Positions 7,091-63,356 of a stretch of 64,000 nucleotides of DNA are shown piece after piece; within the stretch, counting starts at the first letter, position 1; every line of letters starts with the position of its first letter. The notes below the pieces were generated by a model. The model saw nothing but the letters and a program-made list of their open reading frames with translations, did not search any database and was not told the origin of the DNA. Made by a program: the position numbers and the translations under genes. Origin of the DNA: a bacterium (GTDB lineage: Bacteria > Patescibacteriota > Gracilibacteria > BD1-5 > UBA2023); NCBI GenBank assembly GCA_035437565.1, contig DAOMYL010000003.1, positions 5,596 through 69,595 of the forward strand, given 5' to 3'.

Positions 7091-7354
7091 ATGAAAACGA
7101 TACGCATCTACTCCAAGTCCTATTGCCCCTACTGTGTGGAGGCCAAACGCCTGCTCGATCAGCTCGAAATCCCCTACGAAACGATCGATGTGACAGATGA
7201 CGCCGGAACGCTCATCGAGATCTCCGCGAAGTCCGGCATGCGGACGGTCCCACAGATCTGGGCTGATGACGAATGCCTGGGAGGATACTCGGACCTACTC
7301 GCACTCTGCAAATCCGGCGAGCTCGATGGACGGATCCGGAAAATTCTGTCTTAA
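7091..7354 (+). CDS. grxC: glutaredoxin
   Basis: MKTIRIYSKSYCPYCVEAKRLL carries the CPYC active site; TVPQIW and GGYSDL are also present. About 87 aa, TAA stop. Confidence 0.9.
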   Translation: MKTIRIYSKSYCPYCVEAKRLLDQLEIPYETIDVTDDAGTLIEISAKSGMRTVPQIWADDECLGGYSDLLALCKSGELDGRIRKILS

Positions 7355-7398
7355 TGAAGGATTGATACCCTGCCCTTTCGACTTTTTTCTAAAAATCC

Positions 7399-8553: not shown

Positions 8554-8587
8554 CAAAAAATCCCTCCGATTCTTGTGGAGGGATTTT

Positions 8588-9559
8588 TTAGAGATATCCT
8601 CGCTCTGTTTGCTCGGATGAAAAGATCGAAGTGATATAGAGATATCCTCCTACCAGGTAGGCGAAGACGATGCCCGGAAATCCCAAAACCATAGCAGAAT
8701 TGAAAACCGCATGTACGAGGATCGCCGCACCCACGCCGTAAATAAGATACCTCCGGAATGCCATCCAGGGAGTCATACGATCGGATGCGATGAACGACCC
8801 GAAAAAAGAGACTGCGAGCATCGCCGAACACGTGACGTGCAGAAACGTGGAGAAAACAGAGCGGTATCCGAGTGTTTGCCAGTATATACCGGAGAAGACC
8901 GACCCGGACGAGGCAATGGTTGCGAGGTAGAGGATGTTTTCCACGAACGAAAAACCAAGTGCTACGAACGTACCGGAGACCAAGGCTTGCTGAAGCGTCC
9001 CGGACGATGGAAATGAGCCGGAAAGGAACCCGAAATGCTTGACCGCTTCTTCGGATGCCGCGACTAAAACATAGTAGAAGAATATCGCTCCGACCGTGGC
9101 ATAAACAGCATCTTGGAGAACGAGCGGCGAAGCTGGCTCGATACCATAGAGTCCCGTGATACCAGCAAGTTGCCACAATACGGCTGCCACAACGCCGAAA
9201 ACAAGAAAGGCCCCGGTACTCCGAAGTCGATCCCGTGACGATGCTCAGGTCACTCCGAAGAGGAATCCGAAGACGAAAATCAGCAACGCGAATAACATGA
9301 CCATCAGCGCGTACCCGAGGAAAAACACTACGATTCCCGCAGATACGTCCGCAGCGAGAGGAAACGGATTGAGTCATCCAACCCCTGCCATGGAGAGAAT
9401 CGAATCAAGTGACAAGACGAGGGCTATGGCCGTACCACCGAATACAAGCCCGAGCAAAAACCGTCTCGCGCTCGCCGGGGAGCTATCGTAATACGAAAAG
9501 AGGTATCCCCAGAAGAGCACCGGAACGAATGCGAGAATAGCCGTCGCGATCGTACCCAC
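8588..9559 (-). CDS. PrsW-family intramembrane metalloprotease
   Basis: Polytopic membrane protein with EEAVKH, GFSFVEN and HAVFN motifs. Track ORFs 9374..9559 and 8588..9190 share a frame. They are joined through TGA at 9374-9376 and a second TGA in the open gap (my count about 9248-9250). Confidence 0.75.
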
Positions 9560-9571
9560 AGGTGGTGGTGG

Positions 9572-9775
9572 TTATTTTTTTCGACGGTAAATTTCGTAGT
9601 CGCCGAAACGGAAAGTCTGACGATCCTGCTGATCTTTTCGTCCGAATGCAACAGAAGCGATGAGCATGTTGACGCCGATCGACAAGAAAAAGAAACCGAT
9701 GATGTACGCGACAAGATCGGGAAAGATAATAAACAGCACCCCGAATATGAAGAAGATCGCGCCGATAGTTCGCAT
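9572..9775 (-). CDS. small two-TM membrane protein (67 aa)
   Basis: MRTIGAIFFIFGVLFIIFPDLVAYIIGFFFLSIGVNMLIASVAF followed by a basic tail. Sits 10 nt after the murA stop, with its TAA 10 nt before the PrsW start. Confidence 0.6.
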   Translation of the reverse strand: MRTIGAIFFIFGVLFIIFPDLVAYIIGFFFLSIGVNMLIASVAFGRKDQQDRQTFRFGDYEIYRRKK

Positions 9776-9785
9776 GGACAGGATG

Positions 9786-11054
9786 TTAGGATTCTATACG
9801 ATCGATCTGGATTCCGAGCGACCGGAGTTTCCCGAGAATATCCTCGTAACCCCGCTCGATATACTCGACATTCGTAATGCGCGTCTCTCCTTCGGCGATA
9901 AGACCCGCGAGGATCATGGATGCACCGGAGCGGAGATCCCAGCTCGTGACCGTAGTGCCGCGCAGTTTCGTTGGACCGAAGATGAGTGCCTCGTGAGGAT
10001 TGAGGATGGCAGAATGCCCTTTCATGGCTTCGAGCTCCATGAGCATATTGAATCGCCCTTCGAACAAGATCTCATGCACGCGCGATATTCCCTCGGCTTG
10101 CGTAAGCATCACGGTAAAAGGCGATTGGATATCCGTCGGGAATCCGGGAAAGACATTGGTCTGCAGGGAGATCGCCCGGAGATTCGAGCGGGAGTTATGC
10201 ACGCGTATGGTATCGTTGGACCGTAACTCGTAGCATACTCCCGCTTCGGATGCTTTGATGAGGAAACTTCCGAGATCCCCGATCCGGGCATGCTCGATGT
10301 CGATAAATTCTTCCGCACAAAGTGCGCCAAGAAGAATAAAAAATCCCGACTCGAGGTAATCGTGTATGACGGTATACTCCACATGCTCGGGGAGCTCCGA
10401 TATGCCGGAGACTTCGAACGAATGATCATAGGAAGTCTCAATCCGAGCACCGCAAGCGCGCAGAAACCCAACCACATCCATTACGTGCGGCTCGATCGCG
10501 GCAAGACGGATTTTGGTAGTGCCAGGCCGGAAAGCACTCGCGGCGAGCAGATTCTCCGTCGCAGTGACTGAGAAAAACGTGGAAAGCTCGACATCGTGTC
10601 GGAATCAGTCACCCGAGAAAGAAAGCAGTCCGTCCGACTCGGAGAAGCCGTATCCGAGCATTCTGAGTCCATTGACATGCTCATCGATCGGACGCTTTCC
10701 GAGATTGCATCCTCCTGGATACGGGAGATCCACTCGCCCGAATCGATGCAAAAGAGCGGGGATGAGCAGGATACTCGCCCGAATCTTCTTCACGAGTCCA
10801 GGGTCATCACTCTCCGGCCTCATGTCAGAAGTATCGAGCTCGACCGTATTTCCCTCAAAACGAACGGTCACACCGTAGCTCTCGAAAATGCGAAGCAACA
10901 TCATGACATCCCCTATGTGGGGAATATTATGAAGGGTGGACCGCCGAGCAAATAGGGCAGACGCAAGAACTGGAAGGGCTGCATTTTTCGCGCCGCTCAT
11001 ACGCACGGTTCCACGGGCGGTTTGTCCTCATTCGATTCGGAGCATGGGAGTCAT
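9786..11054 (-). CDS. murA: UDP-N-acetylglucosamine 1-carboxyvinyltransferase
   Basis: MTPMLRIE[G]GQTARGTVRMSGAKNAALP N-terminus, PGGCNLGKRPID, TENLLAA and the C-terminal GETRITNVEYIERGYE. In-frame TGA at 11028-11030 and 10602-10604. Confidence 0.95.
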
Positions 11055-19197: not shown

Positions 19198-20625
19198 CTA
19201 GATGCCGAGTTTATCGCGCAGGACGTTTATTTCGTAGAAGAGATTCTGGTCTTTCTTGAGAATCTGTTCAAGTTTCTTGCAAGAATAGAGGACCGAGGAA
19301 TGATTGCGACCGGAGAAAATATTTCCGATACGGTCATACGTATAATTGAGTCGATTCTTGAGCAGATACATGGCAACCTGTCTCGGAATCATGTTCTCTT
19401 TGCGGCGATCCTCCCCCACCAAACTCCCCACCTCGATACCGAAATGCGCACTTACTGCATCGAGAAGTTCTTGGTATCCGGCAATCTTGGTTCTGGATTT
19501 TTTTGGTCCCGAGAAGTCATCGGTAATCGCGAGCTTCTTGAATTTCTTCGCGACGTGCTCGATCGTCGGAGGCGTATTATGTAGCTCATATTCGGCCACG
19601 AGCTGATTGAGAATTCCTTCGAGCTCGCGCACGTTCTCCCCTGTATTATAGGCAATGAACTCGGCGACCTGCTGAGGAATGATGAACTCCCGCGCACGAG
19701 CCTTCTCCTGGAGGATCGCGAGCCGCGTCTCGAAATCCGGTGCGCCAATATCGACAATAATTCCCCACTCGAAGCGGTTTCGGAGACGCGGTTCAAGCTC
19801 CGAGAGCTCCTTGGGCGGACGATCGCCGGAGAGGACGATCTGCTTATTCCCTTCGTAAAGGATATTGAAAATATTATAGAGCTCTTCCTGCGTCTGCTTT
19901 TTGCCAGCGAGGAACTGTACGTCATCGATAATGAGTACATCGATCGAGCGGTATTTCTCGCGCATCTGGTCGACCTTCCGAGCCTTCACACTCGTAATGT
20001 AGTCCGTGAGAAATCGATCGGCGGTCGTATAGATCACACGCTTATCGCGAAATCTTGCCCGGATACCGTTTCCGATCGCCTGGAGAAGATGGGTCTTTCC
20101 GAGCCCAACATCCCCATAGATGAAGAGTGGATTGTAGCTCGATCCCGGCTTCCGGCAGACAGCATCGGCGGCGGCGTATGCGAGCTGGTTCGATGGACCA
20201 ATGATGAAGTTATCGAGACGATATTTGTCGTTGATAACGCGGGAGACGATCCCATCGACCTGCTCGTGTCCGGGAATCTCGGTCTTCTTAGTGCGCTTGG
20301 AGGTAAATTCCTTATAGAGTGTTTGGCAATCGACAACCTGCGTATTGGTCGTATTGTCGATCGCCGTATCGACAACGAAATCCACCGATTCGATGGATGG
20401 AACAAATTTTTTGGTCGCTTGCTTGATTTCGTCGTAAAACTTGTGAGAAAGGTTGTCGCGCATAAAACTCGATACGACCCCGAAAACAATACGGTCGGAC
20501 GTACGGTCAACAACGGACAGCTTCTTGAAATAGGTCAGGAAATCCTGCTTGCGCACGGTGCTTACGAGCTCCGAGACAATCTCTTTCAGGATGATTTTTG
20601 CTTCGAGGGAATCGGTTTGCTGCAT
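19198..20625 (-). CDS. dnaA: chromosomal replication initiator protein DnaA
   Basis: 475 aa. AAA+ Walker A GDVGLGKTHLLQAIGN, box VII and sensor regions, and the C-terminal DNA-binding helix (MIPRQVAMYLLKN, IGNIFSGRNHSSVLYSC). Confidence 0.96.
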   Translation of the reverse strand: MQQTDSLEAKIILKEIVSELVSTVRKQDFLTYFKKLSVVDRTSDRIVFGVVSSFMRDNLSHKFYDEIKQATKKFVPSIESVDFVVDTAIDNTTNTQVVDCQTLYKEFTSKRTKKTEIPGHEQVDGIVSRVINDKYRLDNFIIGPSNQLAYAAADAVCRKPGSSYNPLFIYGDVGLGKTHLLQAIGNGIRARFRDKRVIYTTADRFLTDYITSVKARKVDQMREKYRSIDVLIIDDVQFLAGKKQTQEELYNIFNILYEGNKQIVLSGDRPPKELSELEPRLRNRFEWGIIVDIGAPDFETRLAILQEKARAREFIIPQQVAEFIAYNTGENVRELEGILNQLVAEYELHNTPPTIEHVAKKFKKLAITDDFSGPKKSRTKIAGYQELLDAVSAHFGIEVGSLVGEDRRKENMIPRQVAMYLLKNRLNYTYDRIGNIFSGRNHSSVLYSCKKLEQILKKDQNLFYEINVLRDKLGI

Positions 20626-21521: not shown

Positions 21522-21635
21522 AGACATAACTTCGACCTACCAAACGCGTCCGGGAAATGGATGCGTTTTTTTGATAATACGAGCCAAACTGGTACAATGG
21601 GAGCGAATATGCCCTGAATCGTAAACGATCGTACC

Positions 21636-24600
21636 ATGACCACCGGAAATACCAATACCCTTAACTCCGCCAATGAAAATATCCGGCGTCAAGCCGAGAC
21701 TCCGGAAGCCCGGCGCGAACGCCTGAGAAGGAGGCTGCTCTCGGAAGTCCTGGAGGAGCGGATCCACCGAGGTGAATGAACCGCCGGGAAGGGGTTGGAG
21801 TATTACGACCGCGTCAAATCGGAGTCGGGATATCTATCGATACGCGCTGATATGCGCTCCTATCTCGCATCCGCCGACCCTGAAACACTCGATGATGCCC
21901 TCAGAGAGATCACTCCCGCCGAAATCGCCGAACTCGTGAGCGGAATCCCCGATGACGACATACGGCATACGCTCATGCGGTACGGTGCCTCTATCGAATC
22001 CGATCGTGAAGCAGCTCTCGAACGGATCAAGGGAGAGTATTCCCTCGTACCGGCAGACTTCCAGACGATCCGGGGTTTCATTGCCACGGCGAGCCGCGAA
22101 GATCTCACAGCTATGGCCAAGAACAAAGCCGCTCGCAAACGCGTGATCCAGACGAAGGCTCACGTGAACCTAGAAGGACGCGACCGAAACATTGCGAGTA
22201 TCCTCGATGAGATCGGACTCAACCAGGTAAGCAAGCCTCTGAACGATACGGACAAGGCTCTGATTCGGCGACTCATGTACCCAGGAGGGGGTGATGTTCG
22301 ATTCGTATCATCCGCCGATGTGAAGCGTCTATTTCAGATCCTCGACTTCACTAATGCTGCCAACCGCAATGCAAAATCTCGCAAGGCACTGCGGAATCTC
22401 TTTCGCGCATACTGTCCGATGATCCGTACTGGGACACTGCGGAAATCCGGATTGCTCACTCCCGAGACGGTACGATCCATTCGCGAAGCGATCATCCGGC
22501 ATCAGCCCGGAGACATGGAGGCGACATTCGGATCGTACATCATGGGGATCAATCTCACGGAGGAAGAAATTGTCCGTCACGATTCTATTGCCATACCATT
22601 CGACCAAATTGCCGACTCAACGATCGACCGACTCATAGATGCCGAGAATAGCGATCTCTTCGAAGCGATAGCAAAAGATTTAACGGACGAGCGGAAACCT
22701 GACCAACCACACGAATCTGGAGAGCTCGGCGAGCGCGATCCTCATGACTGGCTCATTGAATCCGAAGACGAGCGTCCGGGACGTGACAACTCCAGTGTCC
22801 CTGAGTCTTTAGGGCTCTACGAGTATCTCAACGACCATGGACAATTGGTGCCGAGACTCGCCGCAAGAATCAAAAAACTCTTTCCTCACGTCACTGGAAC
22901 CGAGAGAATCGGGGACGACACCTTCGTCATGGGGAAGATCCGCGATAAAAAAACAGGCAAAGAATCATCCGTCTACATTCAGATCCACGAAGCATTCTCC
23001 GGATGATTCCTCTCCCCAACCATCCGTATCCAAAGCCGCGGAATCATTGACGCTATCGATCTCGAAACCGACACTTCTGGTGATACGGTGGAAGAGCTCG
23101 ATTATAATGAATTCATCACAAGTCTCGGGTCCCTCGACTCGGCCGAAATTATCGACCGCACGGAACTCGACCGCCGTCTCCAGATCAACAGAAATATCGA
23201 ATCCGGACAGCAGGTATCGGATGAAGACCGAAAACTCGCAGTCGCCGACTACGTGCCATCGACCAACATCCGGACGATTCACGAACTCGCACGCCATCTC
23301 AACGAAATTGACTCGACCAGATCGGTAACGGAATTCGGCGTTGGATCGAGTTTCGACTTCGGAAATCCGAAGAGACCCGATGGATACGAGACATTCTCCG
23401 TTACGGCCATCAACGAGCCCTCATCATTAATCACCATAAATGACGGAGCCGGCAATTCATTCACCGTATCGTTTACCGAGTTCTACGCACAATTCTCGGC
23501 TCTGAAAGCGGCTCGTTTCTCCGACCCTCTGAATACTGCTGATGGCGTGGTAAAGACACTCGGATCGGAGCTCAGCGGAAATAAGTCGGATGCCTGGAGA
23601 AAGATCGCATACGCGAACGGCGAATTCCGGGACTCGTCCTCTGTGGGCGATGGTGCGAATCCTTCCGAAGAACTGAAAAAGCCGTTCCGATTCTTCCAGC
23701 AAGGGGACACACTCGTCGAAATTGTCAAATCCGCTCCGGGATACGTCACGTTCGTCCGACACGAGGGTTTCACGCCGGAAAAAGTCGAGAAGGACAAGGT
23801 GACTCCGGCGACTTCCAAGAAAGCCTGGAGGTACGAGCGGGTTGGGTACGAGAAGCTCTATCAAGTATTGCGGACCTATGAGTGTGAGCCAACAAGACTC
23901 TCGCATGAGATCGGTGGAATCGATAGGAAATTCGACATCCAGGAAGAATGATCTCCGATCAAAGGACTCTTCAAGAACAAACTCAGCATCCGCGATATTA
24001 TTGGCGCGTTCAAGCAAGGGTCTGAATATTTCAATAACAAACTTGAGAAGAACGATACCATCAACCAGGCGAAGCTGCTCTCCTCGGTATTCAAGCACAT
24101 GCCGGACTGGCTCTTCTCCGAGGCCGACAAGCTCAAGCTCAAGAGTCAATTGCATGGGGAAGTAGAGAAAAAAATCGATGAAGTGAAGGGCATGCTCGAA
24201 AAGAGCATGTCGGGGCTCGACCGGCGCAAACTCACCGAGAAAATGCTCCTCAACCGGAACACGAAAATGCCGGAACTCATGGGTGCCATGCTCGTAACGC
24301 TCGAGAAGTGAGGAGGAATGCTCTACGCCGAACCGCCTCTCTCCAAGTACGAATGAACCGGGCTCTGGTTCAAGCGGTTTGCTGGTCTTCCACCAAACTG
24401 CGACCATACGAAGACGCAGAAGTGGAAGGAATACTACCAGGAAGCCATGGACTTCCGCGACTCGGAAGCCGGAAAACAGCTCAATCTCTCCGGGGAAGTT
24501 ACCGAGATCGAGATCATCTGGACCTGGGCTCGCAAAGTGGAGAAGGACGGAGATGCGACATTCATCCCAAACTTCGGCCCGCGCGTATTTCGAGCATGGG

Positions 24601-25961
24601 CTGAATGACGCCAGGCCGAAACCGAAAAAGGCAAGCGCGAGGCCGACAACTACGGAGACCCAGGGAAACGATTGACCTACGCGCTCAACAAGGCGCGCGA
24701 AGGACTATGGTATTGCGCGATGGGAGACTACAACAAATCGGGGGACGGTGCCGCCATGCAATCGATCATCAACAAGGGATGAGATGACTACCTCAACGGC
24801 GCATTTCCGTTCGTAGCGATCATGGGAAATGCCTCCAAGATGGTGCCGATCGGAGTCTTCAACAAACTGCGTGTCAGCATGGCTATGGGAGGGAAATATA
24901 CCTACCCTCCCTTCATGTTCATGAAGAATCATGACGATATGAAGCTCTTCCGGCGAGTCGTGGAGAAGCTCATAGCAAAACACGGAAGTCAAAAGGCGAA
25001 AGAGCTTGTCCAAAAAATCGCCTACATCCGCGATGAGCATCCCGGAGCCACATACGATGGGCAACCCGTTAACCAAATCCTGGTGGATCTCACGCACCAG
25101 CTCTGGAAAGACCATTGACGCGACATGGATCTCATGCAGAAGCTCAACGTCTTCCGAGACCGCACCCTCATAGCCGAACGACATAATGACCCGGATTTCG
25201 ATCGATATATCCGGAATATGGAGTGATTTTACAGCGATAGCGAGTGGTCGAAAGGAAGCGCGGAGAACGAGAGCGAACGCCAAAACGAAGTCTACGCTGG
25301 AAACCACACCCCTCCGCGCGTAGACGTGATCGCGAAGTGGATACACTTCAGCGACCAGACAAGCGGCATGGACAGCAAGTCGAGTAAACTCTGGACGCAG
25401 GTCCTCTCACACCTCGACATGATCAAGACACTCAAAGACCCGCGCGTCCGAAGCGACGATGCTCAGGCCGAAGCAAAGCACGATCTCTACCGGAAGAAAC
25501 TCTTTGCCGAGTATCAGCACGCCATCGCCAAGGAAATCATGGACGAGACCAACCAGCACAACGACTACACGAGAACCCAGAAGTACGCGAAGGAGCTTAT
25601 CGAGAAGTATGGATTCGATGAGACCCTCTTCGTACCGGAGATGCTCCGGACCCACCCCGACCCGGAAAAGCGCGTAAAAGAGCTCCGCGAGCAACGGGAG
25701 CCTCTCGAGATTCTCGAATTCGATTCATACCAGTATGCCGAAGATGGCGCATACGACCGGTATGTCTCGGAACCTGGAATCAATGCGATCGAGAAACGAT
25801 CGTTCCAAGACCGGTTCAATACGTTTATGGGGCGGAGTTCCACCACAGTCTCCACCGGAGAGACTGGACCAATCAAGTTTTGAGCACTCGGACGAAAAGT
25901 CGCTGAGCAAGTCGCAGGATCGGTCGCGAACGACCAAGATGAATGGCGACGCGCAGCCTAG
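21636..25961 (+). CDS. giant hypothetical protein (about 1441 aa), no signal peptide, about ten in-frame TGA
   Basis: Track ORFs 21795..23006, 23088..23951, 24099..24311, 24822..25118 and 25326..25883 are all in frame 0. I translated every gap and found only TGA interruptions. TAG at 25959-25961. The frame is also open upstream to ATG 21636 (MTTGNTNTLNSANENIRRQAETPEARRER); other candidate ATGs at 21597 and 21561. Confidence 0.75.
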
Positions 25962-30346: not shown

Positions 30347-33300
30347 CTAGTTGGTAAACTTGGTTGGATCGTACGGAAGCGCACGCATCGCATCCCGCAC
30401 GTACTGGGTGTAGAGCCCATCGGGATTGTCGATCCCGAGAATGCTCGCCGAGAATCGCGAGAGCGAGTCCCGAGTAACGCCCCCGTAGTAGCCAGTCGTA
30501 GGGGTATCGGCGGGGAAGTACCCGTAGGCCTTCAGAACCGACTGGAGGATCCGGATACCCTCGTTCGACTGCCCGAAGGCCGCACTCTCCGGGAGAGTGA
30601 CCATGTCGCCGAGCGTCTTCGCAGGTTCGGGTGTGGTGGGCACGACCGGAGTATCAATCGGAGCATCTGCGGCTGGCTGCTGGACGGGTACGGACTCGGG
30701 GATCGCGATCGCTATCTTGACCGGCGTCCGGTAGATCGCGTATGCCCGGGCGAAGGCCTGCTTCGCATCGGACTTGATTCCGGACGATGGAGACTCGCGG
30801 TAGAGTGCCATGAGCAGGACGAAGTCTTGGAATTCAGCGAGCATCTCCGAGTGCTCCGCAAGCGAGATGCTGCCACTCGACAGGAGCCTGGAATCACGCT
30901 GTGCGAACGTGCGGGAAAAAGACTTGAGCACCTTCGCGAGCTTCTCGTCCGAGGGGAGACGAATAGACCAGGTACCGGACTCGATGGTCACCGAAGATTG
31001 TAACAGCACATTCTCTACGACAGTACGAGCATCGCGCAGTGTGGGCAGTGCCTCTTGGTACGCCCGATATCCGGCAATCGCCTCAGCCTTATCCGCCGGG
31101 GATTTCGATGCTTTCCACTTGAGCGCGCGATCAAGAAGGAGTGCTACGCCGTTCGTAGCACGAGCATAGGCGGTATCTATTTCATCGATCGAGCGGTAGT
31201 GTGAGAGGTACGGGTCGTCAAGGAGAGGTAAGAGAAGTTTGTTCGCGAGCTTCACGACCGACTGGTTCACTCCGATAGAATCGAGGTAGATTGATACTTC
31301 TTCCGGAGAATCAAAGTACGCAACAGAGAGTGTTCAGGAAGAAAGGTGTGCACGGATATGCTCAGGATCTTCTTCGATACCGGATCTGTCACACCGTCCA
31401 TCGTAGCGGCTGCCGGAGAGATCCGATCCTCCACAGTCATCCGGGGTACGATCAGCCGTGGAGTTATTCGTACTCGATCCTCCACCACCTCCGCCACCCC
31501 CACCACCTCCGCCTCATCCGGACGTTGAGGAGCTTCCGGATGTGGAAGATGAAGAAGAGAGCGAAGCAACCGCAAAATACGAGAGGTGGTTCGTTGAGAA
31601 GCTACAGAGTTTCGCACCCGAGATGACACACGTTGCGGAAGGGGTATTATTTGCCCATGTATCCCCATCACGTGAACGGTAAATTCGCAGAGTCGAGCCG
31701 ACAGTGGCCGATGGCACGATGAAGGAGACTGTGAATGTGCCACCGCTCGCGGAAAGTCCGACTCCGTCCTCGGCCCCCACTGCAATGGTCTGGAGAATGG
31801 TTCCAGAATAGGTAGTGACGGTAACAACTCCGTTCGAAGTAGACTGTGTATCGAGCGCGGAAACAAGCACGCGAATATCGGCAGACACTGCGGCGTCCGG
31901 GTGAGACGAAGCGATGAGACGCGGAGCATAGAGGATTCCGGACCATGCGGATCATTCTACTGTAATGGATGCGATATTCGAGAACGCGAGGCTTCCCGTG
32001 AGGGCATCTGTATTGGCAGGGTCGCTCGCGAGGGAAAAGACGACTCCAGAGAGCGAAAAGACTGATGATACTGGCACGGTAGAACCTGTAAGCGAGATCG
32101 CTCAGGATCCGGTCGCGGGAGTGGGCGGCGTTACTGGATCGGCAGCCGTATAAAACGATCCGGTCGCCGAGGATGAATTCCCAAAATTATCCGAGAGATT
32201 GATGCGGTAGTCATAGCGCGTTCCGGATACTAGTCCTGAGAGGGTCGCGCTTCCTGTATTGGTAGACCCGGTCTCGACCGAGATAGGAAACGATCCAGCA
32301 TTCGTGTATGATCCGCCCGTACCAACCGTCACGGAGCCGGTCGCGGTCCCGGGCGTATAGTGAGTATCGGTAAAGGCAAATCGGATGATTGCGGAATCCC
32401 GACCAATATTCAATACATCCTGGTTACCGATCACGGGCGCATCGGTCTCGTAATCGGACGCTATGGAGAATGAGAGCGTCGCGCTATTGAGTGAGGTATC
32501 GGTGACGACGAGCGTATAAGACCCCGGCACAGTCACCGTGGATCCAGATGAAAACGCCCCTCCATTCAGGAGCCCCACCCCTTCAGTAAATCCGAGCGTC
32601 ACAGACCCTGTGTAGTATGTCCCATCTACGGCACCCGTGAGGTATGGAGCGGCACGATCGAGCTCATTCACAGAAGTATCGTCGAGCGTAACACCATCGA
32701 ATACTCCGCCGATCTGTGGCGCATCGTATGTCCCGTAGGTAGACGGCGCGAATGTAATAACCGCCCCAGTAGAACCCGATGCTGATCGCGAAAGAATCGT
32801 GCTTCCCCCGACCGTGAGCCCATCGAGGTCCGAGATGTCGGACAGTGGGGATGTAAAAGAGAGAAGGTACGACTCGATATAGGGAGAATCCGCATCTCCG
32901 ATCGTCTCGGCGGAGGCAATGGTATTGACCGCGATAATGCCGACTGTCACCGAGTTTCCAACCGATTGGGCTGATCCGTTGAGAATCGAGACCGTCTTGC
33001 TCCCGGCCGTAGCCGAGGGGGTGATACGATAGGTAAAATCGACCCGTGAGGTACAGGGCGCACCCGCCCCACTATAGGAGAACGCATAGCGGAAATTCCC
33101 GTCGCTCGCGTTCGAGAGAGAGTACCCACACGTGCTATTGGAGTTCGATGAAACATACTCGAATCCCGACGGCATATTGATAGAAAGTGTATCCGCTGTG
33201 GGTGATCAGGAGTTCGTCACGATCGCTGTGATACGGAATGACACGAGCGAATTTGCATTGCTGACGCCGGTGAGACTCGAGAGTCCTCCAGTGGCCGATG

Positions 33301-33430
33301 CTCATTGATTCACGATCATCGTGGGCGCGACCAGGTATGCCGCATCGGCCGATCCGCTCTGCAAGACAAACGAAAAAACAAAGAGCGCGAAACCCGCGAG
33401 AAAGCGGAGAAAACGGGAGAAGTACTGCAT
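30347..33430 (-). CDS. giant secreted surface protein (1027 aa): signal peptide, Ig/FN3-like beta-rich repeats, Ser/Gly linker, helical region, C-terminal peptidoglycan-binding domain
   Basis: Track ORFs 32102..33175, 31514..31888 and 30347..31270 share a frame. Gaps contain only TGA (33302, 33206, 32102, 31952, 31514, 31334). Signal peptide MQYFSRFLRFLAGFALFVFSFVLQSGSADA. FN3-like GTRYDYRINLSDNFGNSS. C-terminus GIRILQSVLKAYGYFPADTPTTGYYGGVTRDSLSRF is PG_binding_1-like. Confidence 0.8.
31478..31519 (-). repeat. run of 14 glycine codons, one of which is TGA
   Basis: Minus strand reads GGA TGA GGC GGA GGT GGT GGG GGT GGC GGA GGT GGT GGA GGA. It is flanked by a Ser-rich linker (SSSSSTSGSSSTS ... 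SSTNNST). Confidence 0.9.
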
Positions 33431-51603: not shown

Positions 51604-53592
<1,989 letters not shown>

Positions 53593-54383: not shown

Positions 54384-57300
54384 ATGAGCGACGCTCTTTT
54401 ATCCACGCGAGAAGACCCCTGCCAGACCGTACCGAATGCGAAGCCGGCACATACGTCCCCCATTCTTCCGCCGCTCGAATCAAATGAAGCCTTTCTCGCC
54501 GTGATTCATGCTCTCCGCGATGCCGAGGTTTCGAGTCCAGATCGCACCCGGAGTATCGATGCAATTATCGCAAAAACGACGGCAGGCACGGGAAGTCCTA
54601 GGATCAACAAGAATGGTGTGATGGCGATATACACGATTGCTTCGAGTCTCGCCGAAACATTCCAGAACCCTACATTCCAGCAAGATCCGAAAGAGCCTAT
54701 CCACTCTTTCGTTTCGAATCTCCCGGACATGTTCGAACCAGGGTCATGGATGAGATCCGTGATCGCTTCGGATCTTCCGCGAAACCGACGTGAAACACTC
54801 ATATACGGCACGTTTTTTATCTGGCTCGATCGGACGTATTTCCGGCACAAGGGAGCCCGAGTACCCGAACCAATACTCCGGTACCTCCAAGAAGATCATG
54901 TCCAGACACAGGGCGTCCACTTCTTGAAGGCGAGTCTCGATAGAATGGGGAGCAACAATGACAATCACCGGAACCGACACCTCGAACTCGGATTCTGTCT
55001 CCTCTCAGGAGACGACTCGCTCGAGATCGCGGAGCTCGTAGAGGAGGCGAAGCGACCGGAAAACCAGTGACTCGACAAACAAAGCTGCGTGGCACTCGAA
55101 AAAATAGAGACGGGTTTCCGGACTGCGGCGAACGTACTCAAGAATGAATTTCAAGAGCAAATCAACAGTACAAAAGGGGCGGCCACGATTTCGGACATCT
55201 CGAAGTTCCTCATCAAGACCGACCGAATTGTCGACCGCTTCGGTGTGCATATCAACCTGATGAACTGGTCGATGCAACCATATGCCGAGGAGCCGGCACA
55301 CCGTCCGTACATTCTCCTGCTTCGCAACCACATAGACCGAATAGAAAAGAGCGTCCGCGATGTACTGGATATCGTCTCGGATATCGAGAAGCTCTACCCT
55401 GCAAATTCCCCTTGGGCATCGAGCCAGAATGGAATGCTCGTTTCGGTCTTGCGACTCCGAATGCTCTGGCTCCAATACAATCTCTGCAAGATCCAGATCA
55501 ACACCGCCCCCTCCCTATTCGAGCAGAGAATACATAAAGGCGGAGGAAAAACGCAAGAGAACCACCAAATCTACGCAGCCGAGACAGAGCGTTTCACAAA
55601 GCGAATAGAACTCGGGGAACAAAATCTCTCCCAAATTATCGCGCTCTGCGATGATCTCGCCAGTCGGGAGCCGCGGTACGCACAATGTGCGGCGGCTGCC
55701 CCCTGGGACAATTCCGGATGACCGTCACAGATGCGGACCGGAGATCTCATCGATGCTATCATTGGGCACGCTACCACATCCCTCGATGCCGACAAGAATC
55801 GCGCATTGGAGCAAAGAGAAAAACGCAGAACTTACGGTATTCTCTGCAATTTCTCCTATCTCCCACTCATACTCGCACGCTACGAATCGAGACTTGAGTC
55901 ATCAGTGCGGCGCGACATCGAGAGTGGAATCTCAAATATCCTGCTCATGCAGGAAGAGAGAGATCCGAATACTCTCAACGATGTGGATCTGGTGACAGCG
56001 GAAAACGCACAAACCCGACGCCTCCAGTTCATTCGGAATTTCGCACAGGTACCACCGGAAAATCCGGACATTTTTCGCGAAACCGTAGAGAACGCATACC
56101 AACTCTTCCGGACTCTTCCTGCCGAAGAGCGCACCGACGACCTACTCTCGATGCTCGCTGATACGCTCATGCGACGTCTTCAAGAAGTCTGATCGCGGCG
56201 GACTTCGCTCCAGGCATCCCTCCTACTCTTCGAGGTGACGCAAGCACTCCGTCTATCATACTTTCGCAGTCCCCGAGGATCAAAAACACTTTCTGGTACG
56301 CTCTCTCGGATTTCACAGTTTGCCAAAACAAACTCAAGTGCTGGATCTTCATCGGATTCTCTCGGACGAATCTGTCTCGAGCTTGCCCGAGTCTCCGCCA
56401 TCATCGGAGCAGATCTCTGTACCAACCGGAAATACTCCGTTGTTCCGAAGGAATTAAAACAAGAATGCTTCGAGAGTCTCCGAAGAGCTCTCTACCTTCA
56501 TCCGAATTTTTCAGCGGTCCTCTCATCAATGGAGGCTGATGAGCTCCAGCGCATCAGCGTAATGCTCGACATCCAGAGTCCCACCGATCTGCTCACGAAG
56601 ACTCGTCCGGCAAAAGACGTACTGGTGAAAGGAATCAGGAGCATCGTTATGACGATGGGGTCGAGAGAGCGTTCGAGAGCACTCACGAACGCTCTCTCCA
56701 AGGAAATCGCCACGACCGTGAATGAATTGCTCGAAACGGAAGATGCCCAACACGCCAAGGCGACATGAACGGTAATCAACCATCTAAGAACCCGTCTCAC
56801 CAAGAGCGTCTTTGCGATGATCGGCGAAAAAATATTCCACGGCCGCTGAGTCGTCCATATGGCGATTCTCAAACCTGAATCATTCAAGACGTCCGAGGTG
56901 CCCGACTCATCAGCGATACTCTCGGCCGCGGTAAAGAACGAAGAAATTTCCCGAGATCAGCGCATCACGCCACTCGTGATTCATCCGTGAGTCGTGATAT
57001 TCGTGGCTCACGAGCCGACCGTCTCATCCCAGATCCGCTCCATTATTCAGTCCGAAGGACTGGAAGACTCGATGGAACGTCTCTGCGATGCCATACTCGA
57101 TCTCCAAGACGGCCTCGATGGAGCCAAGCTCGCGAAAAAATGTATCGAGGCTCTCCTGCCACGGAAGAGGAGTGGCATGATGAATGCCTGTGCCGGATGG
57201 GTCATCGATCCGGACACGGGCATTGCATCAGCTCTTGCGGGTGATTCAATCAATGAAAACAAGACTCCTGAGAATAGAGCTTCTTCTGTCGCCCGGGCCG

Positions 57301-58541
57301 CGAGTGCCTGCTATCTCGCTGTCACCGATGCTGGCGAAGCACAGGAATTCAAAAAACCTGGAAGTGAGTCTACCCATTATTTTCAGTCGCTCTACTTCCA
57401 GACATCAACACGCACTCCCCCATCTTGCCTGCGTCCCGGTGCGACAATTTTCCTCCAGGTAGTGCCGCAGTGAGAATACTTGTCACACCTCGTGAGAAAT
57501 GGAATCATTTCGGGGAGCGCGCTCGCAACGATACCGGCACACGAAGTCGCCGCCCTCGAGAATACCGTCCCACTGATCGGAACAATTTCCCATGTGAGCC
57601 AATGATGACAGGTGGACGTTATGATTACCGGACCACTCACCTTTGCCCGGCACTATCTCACAACCATGCGGGCAGCACGATCGGCGGGAGTCGTCTACAT
57701 CGATGAGCGGAGTATCCAAGGGTCCAATTCGGAACACGGCATGCTCACGGCACAATCACAAATAACGACCGGGAACCGCGGACAAACGGTCGCCCCGAGA
57801 GTCCTCATGAGCGGCCCTGGGTGAGAAAATATGAGAGGCGTCTGTTCGTTTCTTGGTCCGGATTCATTGCGAGTCGTCTTCGAGCTTTCGAGAGATGCGA
57901 TCTCAAGACTCGGCCCGTTTCTTGCGACACAGGGCGATCTGACAGTGGCGGTAAACATACTCTCCGATCTTCGAGCGAACCTCGTCTCTGCTCTCAGAAA
58001 CCTCTGTCGCAAAGACGAAACAGCAAAAGGGGAAATGGTCACCAAATACCTGGACCAAACCCTGCAAAGGATCCTCGACAATCCACAGGCGTCACCTGGA
58101 AAAAACTCCAGAATTTGAACTGAAACAGCACGAAAAATCCATTGGGGTGAGCTGATAAAAAGGACAATCCGCGCCGCAATCCCTCCGGAAAAAGACTACA
58201 CGCCCGATGCCGTAGATGAGATCATTCGAACCGTCGGTGACGATCTTATCGAGCACACGTCATCACACGATTCCATCTTCCACGAACTCCTCGCGCTCCC
58301 TGGGCTCGATGCCGCCAAAAATCCGCTCTTTCGCATAACAATAGACTCGAAAACACTTGAGCTTTCCACGGCAACGATCGACCATCTCAAAACACCGCTT
58401 ATCACGATGAACCCTCACTCTGGACTCGTGGAGCTGACATTCCGATATACCAGATCGGCGGAATCCAATAAGTTTGTCCGATCGTTGCGAGAGAAGCTTC
58501 TCTGAAACGATGCATCGGGAATGCGATCGACGCTTCTCTAG
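54384..58541 (+). CDS. giant hypothetical protein (1385 aa), no signal peptide, twelve in-frame TGA
   Basis: Track ORFs 54384..55070, 55089..55721, 55731..56192, 56235..56768, 56994..57473, 57612..57824 and 57831..58118 are all in frame 0. All gaps I translated contain only TGA. TAG at 58539-58541. No motif recognised; predominantly helical-looking sequence. Confidence 0.75.
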
Positions 58542-59695
58542 AACCCCCTGCGCCGTACGATCAAGAATCGCGCGAAATATCCGACAAGAAACATTGACAA
58601 AAAGATCATTCTCAGAAGGTCGGTGCTTTCGAGTGCGGTACGCACTGAGTCTGGAAAAGAGAAGATGACCGCTGCCTGTGCGATCCCGTTGATAAATACC
58701 TCAATGACCGCAAATCCCCCGAGGAGCTCTTTAATGTTTTTTATGTGGTCAACCCGATCACGATCGATCCGGGCGCGGCGCAGTTCCGATTCACGTTCGG
58801 CGGCACGGCGCGCGCTCTCGAGGACGGTTTCCTTCACGAGGGTATTCTTAGAGACGGCTTTTTCGTAGGAACGGAGCGTTGCCTTCGCCTTCCGTACAAA
58901 ATTATCGAAGTACCGGGACTCCGTGGCACCGAGCGTTTCAATGCGCGATTCCAGATTCTCCACATTGCCTTCTATCGACTCAATGTCGTAGGCGAGAGAG
59001 AAATTGAGAGAATCGAATCGCGAGACTTCCCGGTTGAGCTTCGCGAGAACATCATCTCCAAGACTCCGGCGAGACTCATCAGCCAAGAGGCGTTCGCATT
59101 CACGTACGATCTGCTCATGCATGACGAGTGATTCTGGGTAGACCCCTCAGAGAAAATGCTCGTGAAATCGGGCGATCTTGCGGGAGTATACGATAATGTG
59201 TTCGATATTCTTAAGAGCGTTGGTGAGGTACTCTTCATCCTCCTCAAGAGAAAAAACAACGTGTGTCCGGTCGAGACGTTTATGCGCGAGTCCGTAGGCG
59301 ATGTGGTCGAAATAGCGCATATTAGCCGAACAGTCCGTCACCGTGAGCAGTACATCATCGGTCGGGAGAGCCATGCCTCCGGATGGAAGATCCGGAATCG
59401 ACCCAAGAATCTGCCTGGACGATTCCACGAATCATGAGCCATCCACGGTCGAGTCGGACGATTCAACCGTGACGGAGTACTCAAAGAGGTCTACATCGAA
59501 AAAACGCTTCATCCGAAAACGGAGTATCTGCCCCGGAGTCGGAATCCAAGATGCTTCATCTCGTCGTGAAAACCGTCCGTCGAGTGCAGCGTGAACGACC
59601 GAAATATCATCGGTCGTCCGCGAAACGCTCGGATCTCGCAGGACCGGGAAGACTCGAACGTAGGCAGGATTACGAATCGGTATCGGTAAGTGCAT
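58538..59695 (-). CDS. hypothetical protein (385 aa): globular N-domain, coiled coil, two C-terminal TM helices
   Basis: Track ORFs 59432..59695, 59147..59428 and 58538..59122 share a frame; TGA at 59432 and 59147. Coiled coil IESIEGNVENLESRIETLGATESRYFDNFVRKAKATLRSYEKAV. TM helices LLGGFAVIEVFINGIAQAAVIFSF and LLRMIFLSMFLVGYFARFLIV. Confidence 0.65.
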
Positions 59696-60023
59696 GGGTG
59701 TGCTTTATCTGGTCGAGGACAATCGCGGACATAAGAGTAATGGAGTTGCAAATTTCGGCTTCGGTCTCATCGGTACCGGAGAGGTCCATATCCCGCGTCA
59801 CCGAGTCCGAGTATTCGATCGGAATCAGTGCGGTCTCCAGACCGGCACGCAGAGACGCAAGCGCGTTGGAGAGAGCAAGCGCATCCGATCGGCCCGATGT
59901 CCGCCAGACCTCCAGAAGCAATGCCACGATGTTATCGTGCTCGACCGGATCAAACAACCCGTCCTGGAGTGCGCGCGAGACCGAAGCGAGAAGCAAGCGG
60001 GATTCCTGAATCTGCGATAACAT
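59670..60023 (-). CDS. small helical hypothetical protein (117 aa)
   Basis: Uninterrupted ORF. Its ATG is 13 nt after the CHAT gene stop. Its TAA lies 26 nt inside the next gene. Confidence 0.55.
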   Translation of the reverse strand: MLSQIQESRLLLASVSRALQDGLFDPVEHDNIVALLLEVWRTSGRSDALALSNALASLRAGLETALIPIEYSDSVTRDMDLSGTDETEAEICNSITLMSAIVLDQIKHTHALTDTDS

Positions 60024-60036
60024 GGGAGTCTGGGAG

Positions 60037-62514
60037 TTATTCGGTCATGTCCGCACTCTGAGCCGGAAGTCCATCGAGATGCTCATCCGGAGAGCCGTAG
60101 TAAATGAACGCAGCCCATGATATATCCTGCGGATGACGCGAACGGAGGTACTTTTTCGACTCCACGAGCGATGATCCAATCGTGTCTCCGGCAAGTAGGT
60201 GTGAGTAGAAGCGTCCGGCAAAATCGCTCGCAGACACATCATTGACTGGCCACATGGTGGAAATGACACCCTTGGCCCCTCCGACTACGAATCCCGTGGC
60301 GATCCCCACGGATCCGAGCGGATCGGCATCGAAAATGCGATCCGAAGAAGGCACTTCGACGACAGTGTCGGAGAGCGCGCCAGATGAACAGGCATTGAGG
60401 AAAATCAGTGGATTCCCTCCGAGTGACCGCTTGATTTCAGTCACAGAGAGCAGCTGTCCGGAGGCGAGCACGAGACCGCTCTCATCGGGCGTATCACGGT
60501 CGTGCACGGCATGTCCAGCATAATGAATCACATCCCATGCCTGCCCGAGTAGCGGTACGAGATTCGGAATACTGGCATCCTCTCATCGTACTACCGTCAT
60601 ATCCGCAACACTCCGCATGGCAGCAATAATTGTCTCGACCTCTCGCTCCGTCCCCGGAAGATCTCCCGTTGGATTCACGATAAAGAGTATTCGAGGTTTT
60701 CTGTGTGTCTTGACAGGATTGACACGAATCTCGCCAGATACCAGCAACCCTCTTGCTATGGGATAGGAAAGCGCGAGAAATTTCGTACCATCGTGCATGA
60801 TCTCCCACGGAATCTCCTGCTCATCGGTACGGATCACGAGATCTCCGGATCGCGATGAGAGTGCCTCGCGTATGCGCTCGGAGAGGAAGAGTCGGTAGAT
60901 GGTATTGCCTGAGGTTTTGAGATCCGGAACGGACAACGGAAGGCTCGCAAGCTCATCAAGTGCCGTGCCGCGCACGATGGCAAGACGATTCACGGACGAG
61001 ACGAAAGCCCGAATTCCTTCGATCACCGCCTTACGATTCTCCTCAAGGACCTTTATAGAGCGTTCATAGAGGTCTCGGTATTCGATCCGGTATTCATTCC
61101 CGGTGCGAAATATTCGCAAGACATCGGTATTTTTTCGTTGGTCGTCCGAGGATTCCGTACGAGCGTCACGTACGGCAGATGCCCTCATGCGAGGTGACCG
61201 GCGAATCATCCAGATGATTCCTGTCATACCGAGAATCGCGACAAAGATAGCGACAAGAAGAGCTGGATCGAGAGATTCGAACGAGGAAGACGCTCTCGTA
61301 TCGGCGAGTACCTGTGGTTTGGATGACCCGATATCAGCGGTAGCGAGCAAACCGGATCACTCGATCTCGTTGCCACGCTCCTGCAAATCAACGGACTCAA
61401 GAGATTCCGAAGACTGAGGGGCTTGCGAGGATTCGTCCGTTTTTCCCGAGGCGGTGAGATTCTTTGTGTTTCTCTTCGTGTTTGGCGTCTGTGAGACAAC
61501 CCCCGTCCAACTCGGCGTATCCGGTGATTTGGTCACTTTGACACCGAGCGTATATTCATTGATTCGTCTCCTCGTATCATCTACGAACACTCGCAATGAC
61601 GAGGCCCTATCAGACACATATCAAACCGCCTCGAGATCATCGAGCGTGTATGAGATATTATTAATGCGCTCGAGCCATGCAACTCGCTCGGAGTCAGAGA
61701 GATCTTCGCGTGCGAGTGCCTTCGCGAGGAGGGATTTCTCGGATGCGAGATCGACTCCCTCGATGAATTCGATACCTGAACGCTTCCGATCGAGCTTCGA
61801 TTCGAGCGATGACAGGAGGAATTTCTGGGAAGGGGTCATACGTTCATCGTACTCCCGACGTAGCACAGCAATCCGCTCGATCGCTTTCGAAAGGTCTGCT
61901 TGCGAGTTGAGGTACGAGACCACGACTTCTGGCTTATTGCGCAGGAGATCCGGAGCGAGCGATTGGAGCGCGGAGTCCGAGAGGAGAGCGGATTTCTCCG
62001 GAAAGAGTCGTTTTCCGAAGCCGGACAGATCAACAATTTCCTCGCTGCATACGACCCGGCTGTTATCCATTACGATACAGAGGCGAGCGAAACGAGGCCA
62101 GGAATCCGCTCGCGCGAGGACGGAAGCATCCCCCTCGGACCCGAGAGAAAACGCCTGTCGATCCGCATCGTACGACACCGATCAGGGGGCATTTCTCTCA
62201 GAATTATCATAGTACCACAGGAGATTTTCACCCTGATAGGTCATTCAGACATCGTACTCATCGGCATAGATGAGCTTGAACCATGCGGCATCGCGCACTA
62301 ACCGAGAGTCTTGCGCGCTCCAGGAGAAGCGCACAATTCGATCGGACGGCATATCCACGGAAAAATGGATCCGATCCGAGACCACAGACGGATCTGACTG
62401 GACGACTGAGCGGGACTCCTCGGCATATACGAAGCCCGACCACCCGCAGAATAACAATGCGGCGAGACAGCAAAGGACCACATGCCGGGACGAGAAGGAA
62501 TCGAAGAAAGACAT
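60037..62514 (-). CDS. transmembrane CHAT-domain (caspase-like) protease, about 825 aa
   Basis: Track ORFs 62245..62622, 61621..62178, 61357..61617, 60583..61350 and 60037..60531 are all in one frame, joined by TGA at 62245, 62182, 61621, 61357 and 60583. Signal/anchor MSFFDSFSSRHVVLCCLAALLFCGWSGFVYA. Internal TM LLVAIFVAILGMTGIIWMI. CHAT core ILFIVNPTGDLPGTEREV ... VIHYAGHA (His) ... LIFLNACSSG (Cys) ... VISTMWPVNDVSASDFAGRFY. Confidence 0.75.
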
Positions 62515-62781
62515 ATGTCCCATGAAAGAGCAGTTCTCTCTCATCAGAATACCGCACTTTTTGTGCCATGACAACTTCTTGGGCGCAAGAATCGGCAACC
62601 CTCCCGAAAACCCGCCAGCCACGAATAGACGCGAAATCCAGATATTATGGCTTCATTCTGCCATGTTGCCACTTCGTACCGAACAATTTATTTATACGGG
62701 GTAAATTTTGGGATAACTTTTTTTCTGGCTTCGCAGAGGTGATACCGAGTGTTTCCTCAATACTGGCTCTTACTATTTTCT

Positions 62782-62811
62782 TTGACAAAACAAAATAGTG
62801 TTGCTTAATAT
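62782..62811 (+). promoter_or_regulatory. sigma70-like promoter with no downstream CDS
   Basis: TTGACA (62782-62787), 17-18 nt spacer, TTAATAT (62805-62811). Confidence 0.55.
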
Positions 62812-62814
62812 CAA

Positions 62815-62967
62815 CGTGCCACCGGGGAGATCAAATATCCCACCGGCACGGCCTCGGGCCAAGCCATATTCTTACCCTCATTCTTATGCGAGTGATGCAG
62901 TGGCACTAAAAATGAAAAAGCAAAATCTCTGACAAAAGGTTTTCCCGGGAGCAATCCCGGCTTTTTT
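62815..62967 (+). ncRNA. candidate small RNA of about 150 nt, class unknown
   Basis: Bounded by the promoter at 62782 and the terminator at 62944. No plausible ORF. Internal pairing potential: GTGCCAC with GTGGCAC about 80 nt apart, and GGCC-TCG-GGCC. Confidence 0.4.
62944..62967 (+). terminator. intrinsic terminator of the candidate sRNA
   Basis: CCGGGA-GCAA-TCCCGG followed by C then TTTTTT on the plus strand. The minus-strand reading has no adjacent T run. Confidence 0.65.
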
Positions 62968-62987
62968 GTGACCGAATCGCCCGGACC

Positions 62988-63356
62988 CTAGGCAACGGAG
63001 AACAGGAGTCGTTCAAAGAGATCCACGAGAGATTTTTCATCCCGGTATTCGTGGATCCGATCCGTCACAATTCGCAGGGATCCAGAGATCTTCGTGCCCT
63101 CGGCATGGATGCAGACGATCGGCTTGTCGAGCATATGAGCCCACCCGATCTCGATCCCGAGTCCCGTGGAGGGAAACGAAACCTCCGCCACCATGAGATC
63201 GCATGACCGAATGACTCCGAGTGAGTCTTTCGGAATATCACACAACTCGTAGGGAAAAATGATCTCATGCCGGGAATCGGCAAATCGTTCACGTACGGGC
63301 CGATACAGTGTCTCGCGGTAATCGAGATCCTTGGAGTGGCAGACGTATACGCGCAT
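62988..63356 (-). CDS. nucleoside 2-deoxyribosyltransferase-like protein (122 aa)
   Basis: MRVYVCHS ... DLMVAEVSFPSTGLGIEIGWAHMLDKPIVCI fits the Rossmann-like NDT/YtoQ pattern. Assignment rests on pattern memory only. Confidence 0.45.
   Translation of the reverse strand: MRVYVCHSKDLDYRETLYRPVRERFADSRHEIIFPYELCDIPKDSLGVIRSCDLMVAEVSFPSTGLGIEIGWAHMLDKPIVCIHAEGTKISGSLRIVTDRIHEYRDEKSLVDLFERLLFSVA

Follow-up and report, generated by a model that had tools for sequence, protein, structure and literature searches.

A membrane-anchored CHAT protein heads a conserved three-gene module

Within a 64,000-nucleotide (nt) stretch of DNA from a gracilibacterium (assembly GCA_035437565.1, contig DAOMYL010000003.1, positions 5,596 to 69,595; hereafter the window), the minus strand between positions 58538 and 62514 carries three genes, which we call A, B and C. 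Gene A encodes a membrane-anchored member of the CHAT protease family, gene B a small helical protein and gene C a predicted membrane protein. The three genes had been proposed in a first-pass annotation made from the window's letters alone, and translation with table 25, together with homologues in other genomes, confirms them. The trio is a conserved operon of Patescibacteria that read UGA as glycine. We tentatively interpret it as an outside-in proteolytic switch on a membrane protein, an interpretation to which we give somewhat less than an even chance.

Genetic code of the window

Readthrough of TGA approximately doubles the length of the window covered by open reading frames (ORFs) of at least 100 amino acids (aa), whereas readthrough of TAG or TAA has no such effect. 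Conserved glycine positions of CTP synthase (FVTG[G]V), malic enzyme and MurA, whose gene identities are confirmed by Pfam, are encoded by TGA. In the family alignments of A, B and C, TGA-coded positions stand opposite Gly 222 times and opposite Trp 5 times. On these codon-level signatures, the window is a segment of cellular chromosome, with a GC content of about 53%, in which TGA is read as Gly throughout (translation table 25, the Gracilibacteria/SR1-type code). The same organism is present in two public assemblies (JGI 3300006417 and SRR1506951), where table-11 gene calls leave A in six pieces and C in three, and where the only CHAT label is carried by one 164-aa fragment.

Gene A encodes a predicted single-pass CHAT protease

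Translated with table 25, gene A (60037-62514, minus strand) is one ORF of 825 aa with five in-frame TGA (Gly) codons. The first-pass annotation had merged it from five same-frame fragments; the single ORF stands, while the number of table-11 pieces is six, the smallest of 20 aa. Homologues of A are found at five further loci (L001-L004 and L008, giving six A sequences with the window's), and an alternative start at 62664 is unlikely to be used, since all of these homologues begin right at the signal peptide. This Sec-type signal peptide occupies aa 1-31 (62422-62514, minus), has its hydrophobic core at aa 12-30, has equivalents in the homologues and is predicted to be cleaved at the end of ...GFVYA, ahead of EES.

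The ectodomain that follows, as delimited by alignment of the homologues (aa 32-418; 61261-62421, minus), contains a small module of beta type in which two Cys (aa 146 and 156) are conserved as a pair, and after it a helical insert and a linker rich in Ser, Thr and Gln. It varies among homologues in both sequence and length (about 110 to about 390 aa), most members keep the two-Cys beta-type module, and searches of Pfam, NCBIfam, PADLOC and PHROGs gave it no match other than coiled-coil noise. Next comes a transmembrane helix at aa 419-437 (61204-61260, minus; hydropathy 2.64), which had been placed at 61200-61269 and whose presence holds with these tighter boundaries. The helix is followed directly by the strongly basic stretch RRSPRMRASAVRDAR; this charge distribution around the helix argues for a cytoplasmic CHAT domain, and the conserved Cys pair fits an extracytoplasmic location of the ectodomain. 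Together with the signal peptide, these features predict a single-pass protein with its ectodomain outside and its CHAT domain inside the cell, in agreement with the extracytoplasmic sensor and cytoplasmic protease envisaged in the first-pass annotation.

The cytoplasmic region (aa 438-825; 60040-61203, minus), assigned by profile match and alignment, is highly conserved and includes a juxtamembrane motif (VLRIFRTGNEYRIEY in the window, LxIF..NEYxIEY in the family), TDEQEIPWE, IHY[AS]GH and NPLIFLN[AS]CxSG. Pfam places a CHAT domain (PF12770) at aa 535-808 (60091-60912, minus) with E=3.2e-35 and 122.4 bits against a gathering cut-off of 24, covering profile positions 3-289 of 289; the homologues score 116-139 bits. 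The candidate catalytic residues are His668, within VIHYAGHA (aa 662-669; codon at 60511-60513, minus), and Cys709, within FLNACSSG (aa 705-712; codon at 60388-60390, minus). Both residues, in the contexts IHY[AS]GH and LN[AS]CxSG, are invariant in all six A sequences, which bears out the earlier identification of the domain from these two motifs. By profile and motif, the cytoplasmic domain of A is a clear member of the CHAT family and a predicted cysteine peptidase.

Further profile searches add to this picture. Against the separase profile (Peptidase C50, PF03568), A of the window scores 21.3 bits, below the gathering cut-off of 27.8, and the homologues of L002 and L008 score 39 bits, above it; these scores most likely reflect shared features of clan CD peptidases. 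The PADLOC profile for BovA, the Borvo protein, matches the protease core of A with E=9e-12 over profile positions 508-670 only (163 of 711). Pfam finds no TPR repeats in A, and a search of PDB sequences gave nothing significant. When full-length A was used in a word-indexed search, only four unrelated TPR-CHAT proteins came back and the true homologues were missed, so that the result is not a measure of how rare A is.

Gene B encodes a small helical protein with a conserved C-terminal helix

Gene B (59670-60023, minus) starts 13 nt past the stop codon of A and encodes 117 aa; homologues are found at nine loci. The protein has no hydrophobic segment and is predicted to be soluble and helical, with three N-terminal helices, a variable acidic linker that contains Arg77 (codon at 59793-59795, minus) and a conserved C-terminal amphipathic helix (59703-59762, minus). 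The family consensus for the C-terminal part is R-D-W-[ND]-[IF]-[ED]...[DE]N[IV]ExFNSIEMMSAIFL, to which TRDMD...EAEICNSITLMSAIVL corresponds in the window's B; the RDW of most homologues is thus found here in the motif TRDMD. A single-sequence AlphaFold model shows three helices, a loop at aa 66-85 that includes Arg77, and a long C-terminal helix. Its confidence is low (pLDDT 50), too poor for a fold search, and we used it for secondary structure only. No family match was found for B in Pfam, NCBIfam, PADLOC or PHROGs beyond coiled-coil noise, and a profile of B found nothing significant among PDB sequences.

The linker Arg is kept at all six loci where A adjoins B, and is replaced in L006 (PVW) and L007 (NDW), which represent two independent lineages lacking an adjacent A. 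This correlation between the Arg and an adjacent A is suggestive only.

Gene C encodes a membrane protein of channel-like build

Gene C (58538-59695, minus), defined by its table-25 translation and its HMMER family, overlaps gene B by 26 nt and encodes 385 aa with two TGA (Gly) codons. The protein has two C-terminal hydrophobic segments (aa 327-345 and aa 362-380), and hydropathy and coordinates bear out the anatomy of B and C, the 13-nt gap and the 26-nt overlap as first described. The motifs NFxLxYDxES, SRYF, KNxLxK and HxKNIKE are invariant in the family. The last of these, HIKNIKE in the window (58727-58747, minus), runs directly into the first transmembrane segment (TM1; 58661-58726, minus), in which a polar stripe is conserved on one helical face (E-x3-N-x3-Q/E; E332, N336 and Q340 in the window, Q/E at 340 in the family). 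After a short outer loop, the second segment (TM2; 58556-58618, minus) opens with TxxxRM and is followed by a basic tail. Since the stalk is basic and the tail reads RRRGF, the large N-terminal part is predicted to be cytoplasmic, on the same side as B and the CHAT domain. We thus expect C to consist of a cytoplasmic alpha/beta domain, long stalk helices and a C-terminal transmembrane hairpin.

For structural comparison, the homologue P0018, rather than the window's own C, was modelled with AlphaFold from a six-row alignment (pLDDT 67.8, pTM 0.47). The model shows an alpha/beta domain at aa 1-141 and three long helices, the last continuous with TM1, followed by TM2. In a Foldseek search of the PDB with this model, the only full-length matches were human MRS2 and bacterial CorA (best E=0.015). 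With these proteins C shares the N-terminal cytoplasmic alpha/beta domain, the stalk helix continuous with TM1, the short outer loop, TM2 and the basic tail. On the strength of the model, C plausibly has a CorA/MRS2-like build, and its polar stripe could line a pore; we do not call it a member of the CorA family. A channel nature and a pentameric assembly would follow by analogy.

Other database searches gave little for C. Only coiled-coil-type noise was found in Pfam, NCBIfam, PADLOC and PHROGs (for B, C and the neighbouring gene D together: JetC, LmuB, LegC2/C7, PhaM and KAP), and a profile of C matched nothing significantly among PDB sequences. A relation to the Mycoplasma two-transmembrane family TIGR04527 was considered and dropped, as only one of the 13 family members matched it, and weakly.

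Several details of the C family are recorded here in their own right. The two TGA codons, at aa 88 (59432-59434) and aa 183 (59147-59149), both stand opposite Arg in the homologue of L001 and may represent CGA/AGA-to-TGA changes at variable sites. That homologue has a 2-nt deletion (frameshift) relative to the window at about 2262-2275 of L001; the frame 3' of the deletion is still strongly conserved, which points to a sequencing error or a very recent disruption. In one database protein, P0015, a pilin-like leader is fused to the stalk and transmembrane part from the C-terminal end of a C homologue. Large genes resembling type IV pilins (N-terminal GFTLVEL) lie 1.4-5.3 kb 3' of C in L004 (8300-10114), L006 (9570-11165) and L008 (12093-12764). 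The window has no such large pilin-like gene, and the link between pilins and C may be real, or it may reflect coincidence or a gene call that is chimeric.

The trio is conserved across distant lineages

A word-indexed search with C found one relative, P0005, encoded on a 6-kb contig of 60% GC (L001) that carries, in order, a partial A, B, C and a convergent homologue of gene D, the window's neighbour to C. Identity between the window and L001 is 75% for the cytoplasmic part of A and 61% for C, as against 42% for B and 34% for D, which indicates that A and C are more strongly constrained than the genome background. A HMMER profile built from P0005 and the window's TGA-free fragments was then run against 1.84 billion representative sequences and matched 13 proteins, three of which are the window's own fragments. 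Several of these matches have W where the family has G, as expected of table-4 translations of code-25 genomes. Pattern scans based on a two-sequence alignment (A1) gave no matches in genomes or metagenomes; rescans with two peptide patterns from a ten-sequence alignment (A3) gave five loci in GTDB species genomes and one in metagenomes. With the patterns used, the C family is thus rare (5 loci in 185,579 GTDB species genomes).

Look-ups of two HMMER matches and the GTDB and metagenome scans together yielded eight further loci, all of which read better with TGA as a sense codon. Our comparison covers nine informative loci (the window and L001-L008); L009, which is cut off upstream, was left out. 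In six of the nine (the window, L001-L004 and L008), A, B and C adjoin one another in a constant order with spacings of 1-15 nt, and an overlap of 11-26 nt between B and C is seen at the six loci measured. No A adjoins the B-C pair in L005, L006 and L007. The loci span GC contents of 18.5-60%, and their C proteins fall into four deep clades with 20-38% identity between clades, each of which has members with an adjacent A; among the A-linked loci, identity of C drops as low as 20-27%. In the comparisons that were feasible, the flanking genes differ from locus to locus except between the window and L001. The window has NIF3 and D beside the trio, L003 an HtrA-like protease, L008 ribonucleotide reductase and L002 a 1884-aa protein. 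As adjacency is kept across clades despite these differing flanks, the trio is a selected unit and not a remnant of shared ancestry, and the homologues of A, B and C elsewhere show that these are real genes and not chance ORFs. The findings that the first-pass annotation had named as fatal to its proposal (profile searches without a CHAT or caspase fold, no conserved linkage, and a CHAT domain predicted outside the cell together with housekeeping partners) were looked for and did not turn up.

At least two separate events removed A from beside B-C. One concerns L005/L006 and the other L007, in which C shares 81% identity with the C of the A-linked L002. B-C is the core pair of the module and, from its overlap, is translationally coupled. 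A divergent adenylate cyclase with a CHASE2 domain adjoins B-C in L005 (1-762, minus) and L006 (2257-4323, minus), and in L006, the longer of these two contigs, a PAS-GGDEF-EAL protein also lies 3' of B-C (about 6600-8444, plus). These arrangements hint that B-C can couple to other outward-facing membrane sensors. Judging by codon usage at the loci found, the C family appears limited to TGA-recoded Patescibacteria. Gene D was considered as a fourth component and rejected, as it accompanies the module only in the closest relative, L001, and is missing from the other loci.

Two loci deserve separate mention. L004 (CAZINU010000001.1) is a metagenome-assembled genome labelled 'Candidatus Peribacteria'; its A has an in-frame TGA where other members have Gly or TGA, so this organism apparently also reads TGA as sense. 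In L002, the trio and a 108-aa ORF are followed by a giant ORF (5280-10931, plus) of more than 1884 aa, which is not homologous to the window's D.

Relation to known systems

In the literature library searched, we found no description of the trio and nothing linking CHAT or caspase-type proteins with Gracilibacteria or their relatives. The earlier judgement that this is not a described system holds for the trio and does not extend to membrane-bound CHAT proteins as such, which are known from HetF and DdvA (PMC8406250, PMC11506125). With CHAT proteases in general (PF12770; clan CD, with separase C50) A shares a full-length match and the His/Cys dyad. It differs from them in having no TPR or other known accessory domain, in its order of signal peptide, ectodomain, transmembrane helix and CHAT domain, and in its partners, which belong to new families.

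HetF of Anabaena is a membrane-anchored CHAT protein and divisome component with the order CHAT, transmembrane segment, TPR (PMC8406250). Like A, it joins a single transmembrane segment to the CHAT domain; unlike A, it has no signal peptide or ectodomain ahead of that segment and no partners of the B or C type, and its role lies in division and differentiation. DdvA of Myxococcus is a transmembrane anti-sigma factor with a cytoplasmic zinc anti-sigma domain, a periplasmic TPR-CHAT part and an ECF (extracytoplasmic function) sigma partner, for which proteolysis triggered by an outside signal has been proposed (PMC11506125). Both DdvA and A are single-pass proteins that link a CHAT module to transmembrane signalling. 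The topology of DdvA is opposite to that predicted for A, and DdvA acts on transcription; Pfam and NCBIfam gave no match to an anti-sigma or sigma factor for A, B or C.

The trio shares with gasdermin-protease pairs and with type III-E Craspase the logic of a caspase-family protease encoded beside a small partner and a putative membrane-active protein. In type III-E Craspase, TPR-CHAT/Csx29 cleaves Csx30, and CorA-type effectors occur in type III CRISPR systems. Compared with Craspase, the module has no TPR repeats, cas genes or RNA-guided activator, and its predicted sensor faces outside; its neighbours in the window are D, a deoxyribosyltransferase-like ORF, NIF3 and gyrB, with no cas7-11 or csx30. 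Neither B nor C has a gasdermin family match in Pfam or PADLOC and, in contrast to gasdermins, C would be an integral membrane protein from the start, with two transmembrane helices and a helical stalk. Borvo (BovA) is a single soluble defence protein with which A shares the protease core only, the architecture being different. As the defining features of Borvo, type III-E Craspase and gasdermin systems were looked for and are absent from the trio, it is none of these. The theme of a protease with a partner is known; B and C are two new protein families.

A proposed proteolytic switch and its alternatives

In the reading we favour, B would bind C through its conserved amphipathic helix and hold C in one state. 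A signal at the ectodomain of A would activate the CHAT domain, for example by dimerisation, and the activated domain would cut B in its linker; the cut would switch C and so change ion flux or membrane permeability. Many clan CD enzymes, among them separase and metacaspases, cut after Arg, and for this reason the Arg of the R-D-W motif is our candidate P1 residue. Hydropathy and charge place the CHAT domain, B and the large domain of C all on the cytoplasmic side, and every candidate surface for interaction would lie there, at the membrane. What the switch brings about could be signalling, at the envelope or on host contact, or else cell suicide. That the sensor is predicted to face outward, that B-C lies beside a CHASE2 cyclase and a GGDEF-EAL protein, and that no defence genes lie near the inspected loci argue for physiological or host-contact signalling, whereas the rare and patchy distribution of the module, its variable ectodomain, the precedent of CHAT proteases in defence and the BovA match argue for a role in conflict or abortive infection. 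A 'protease-activated membrane effector', one possibility first raised for the trio, is a reasonable hypothesis. In its most specific form, the switch would be a signalling principle not recognised before in ultra-small, host-dependent bacteria: a surface receptor whose inner CHAT protease cuts B, a plug or adaptor gating a CorA-like channel C, such that an external cue (e.g., host contact) is turned by irreversible proteolysis into ion flux, with B and C founding two new families confined to organisms that read UGA as Gly; taken as a whole, this version is rather unlikely.

A number of observations weigh against a switch of this kind. The correlation between the linker Arg of B and an adjacent A comes from nine related loci (Fisher p of about 0.08), L005 retains the Arg without an adjacent A, and the window's own B has RDM and not RDW. 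B-C may act without any protease, in which case A need not act on B, although L005-L007 are seen as short contigs or 6-kb flanks only and A may lie elsewhere in those genomes. The resemblance of C to CorA/MRS2 is statistically weak (E=0.015-0.5, TM-score 0.2-0.3) and comes from a moderate model built on six sequences. Pfam CorA (PF01544) matches none of the 13 C members at E<=10, hhalign of C against E. coli CorA indicates no relation (probability 0.2%), and the GMN motif of CorA is absent from all C members, TM1 in the window reading ...IEVFINGIAQAAVIF. Pfam and hhalign thus rule out C as a CorA relative detectable by sequence, and a weak likeness remains at the level of fold. Rarity, finally, fits an accessory or conflict module as well as a signalling module.

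C itself could also be the protease substrate. Here A would cut the cytoplasmic part or stalk of C and free the hairpin, and B would be a chaperone or an inhibitor of the protease. Gasdermins, which are activated by proteolytic release of an inhibitory domain, provide a precedent, and C has invariant basic stalk motifs (KNxLxK, HxKNIKE) just ahead of TM1. These motifs are equally invariant in L005-L007, where no A adjoins, and so are more likely structural or gating elements; in the P0018 model, moreover, they form part of an unbroken helix, a poor substrate for a protease. We regard this variant as improbable. Still less involved would be a housekeeping or envelope role with no switch at all, in which A acts in division or envelope biogenesis in the manner of HetF, a membrane-anchored CHAT protein of the divisome (PMC8406250), and B-C is a constitutive transporter or scaffold that is merely co-transcribed. 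The location of the window's module in a housekeeping neighbourhood near dnaA and gyrB, and the loci with B-C and no adjacent A, would agree with this. Among code-25 genomes the module is, however, much too rare for a core function, given five GTDB species loci and 13 HMMER matches (three of them the window's own) among 1.84 billion sequences; the domain order of A is unlike that of HetF, with no TPR repeats, and A still adjoins B-C in each of the four deep clades although the flanks are scrambled. A role of this sort is, in our analysis, decidedly doubtful.

The first-pass annotation had also raised an anti-phage or abortive-infection role, in which infection would cause the CHAT domain to activate C, directly or via B, whereupon C would form a pore, disrupt the membrane and kill or arrest the cell, by the logic of gasdermin-protease or Borvo-type CHAT systems. 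The effectors of known defence systems include CHAT domains, and the BovA profile matches the protease part of A, but that match covers the protease core only. The sparse distribution over distant lineages with unrelated flanks, the contrast between a variable ectodomain and a strongly conserved protease, and the polar stripe in the hairpin of C would all suit such a system. The surroundings lend it no support: no restriction, CRISPR, toxin or mobile-element gene adjoins the module in the window, L002, L003 or L005-L008 (L004 could not be resolved), and the neighbours at the inspected loci are gyrB, NIF3, HtrA, ribonucleotide reductase, a nadB-like gene and signalling enzymes. Furthermore, searches with B and C gave only coiled-coil noise in PADLOC and no match to a PHROG with an assigned function, a sensor outside the cell would be unusual for detecting phage, and B-C persists at three loci without an adjacent A. 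We consider defence a possible, though unlikely, function of the trio.

Surroundings of the module in the window

Gene D (54384-58541, plus; 1385 aa) is convergent with the module, overlaps the stop codon of C by 4 nt and contains 12 TGA codons. It has no transmembrane segment, gave nothing but coiled-coil-type noise in Pfam, NCBIfam, PADLOC and PHROGs and nothing among PDB sequences, and we assign it no function. Upstream of the module lies a seemingly unannotated 122-aa ORF (62988-63356, minus), with weak PHROG matches that include nucleoside deoxyribosyltransferase (E=0.003), and then the NIF3 gene. The region between this ORF and gene A (62515-62987, minus) probably contains the operon promoter, with a weak -35/-10-like match at 62574-62546. 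Elsewhere, the window carries dnaA (19198-20625) and gyrB (51604-53520), and this chromosomal context, with no PHROG matches pointing to phage genes, led us to reject a phage or prophage origin. Two very large ORFs are also present: one of 1027 aa (30347-33430, minus) with a signal peptide and a run of 14 Gly between Ser-rich sequence, probably a surface protein, and one of 1466 aa (21561-25961, plus).

Significance

Proteases of the caspase-related CHAT type increasingly turn out to be central switches in the immunity and development of prokaryotes, and very few of their substrates or outputs are known. The module described here is a compact, conserved set of protease, putative adaptor and membrane protein with a clear and testable wiring. 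What is known of the code-25 Patescibacteria that carry it has been inferred almost wholly from genomes, and because table-11 gene calls break both A and C apart, the module is effectively invisible in public annotation. If C is indeed a protease-gated channel, the CorA-type architecture would gain a new mode of regulation, and two new protein families would gain a function.

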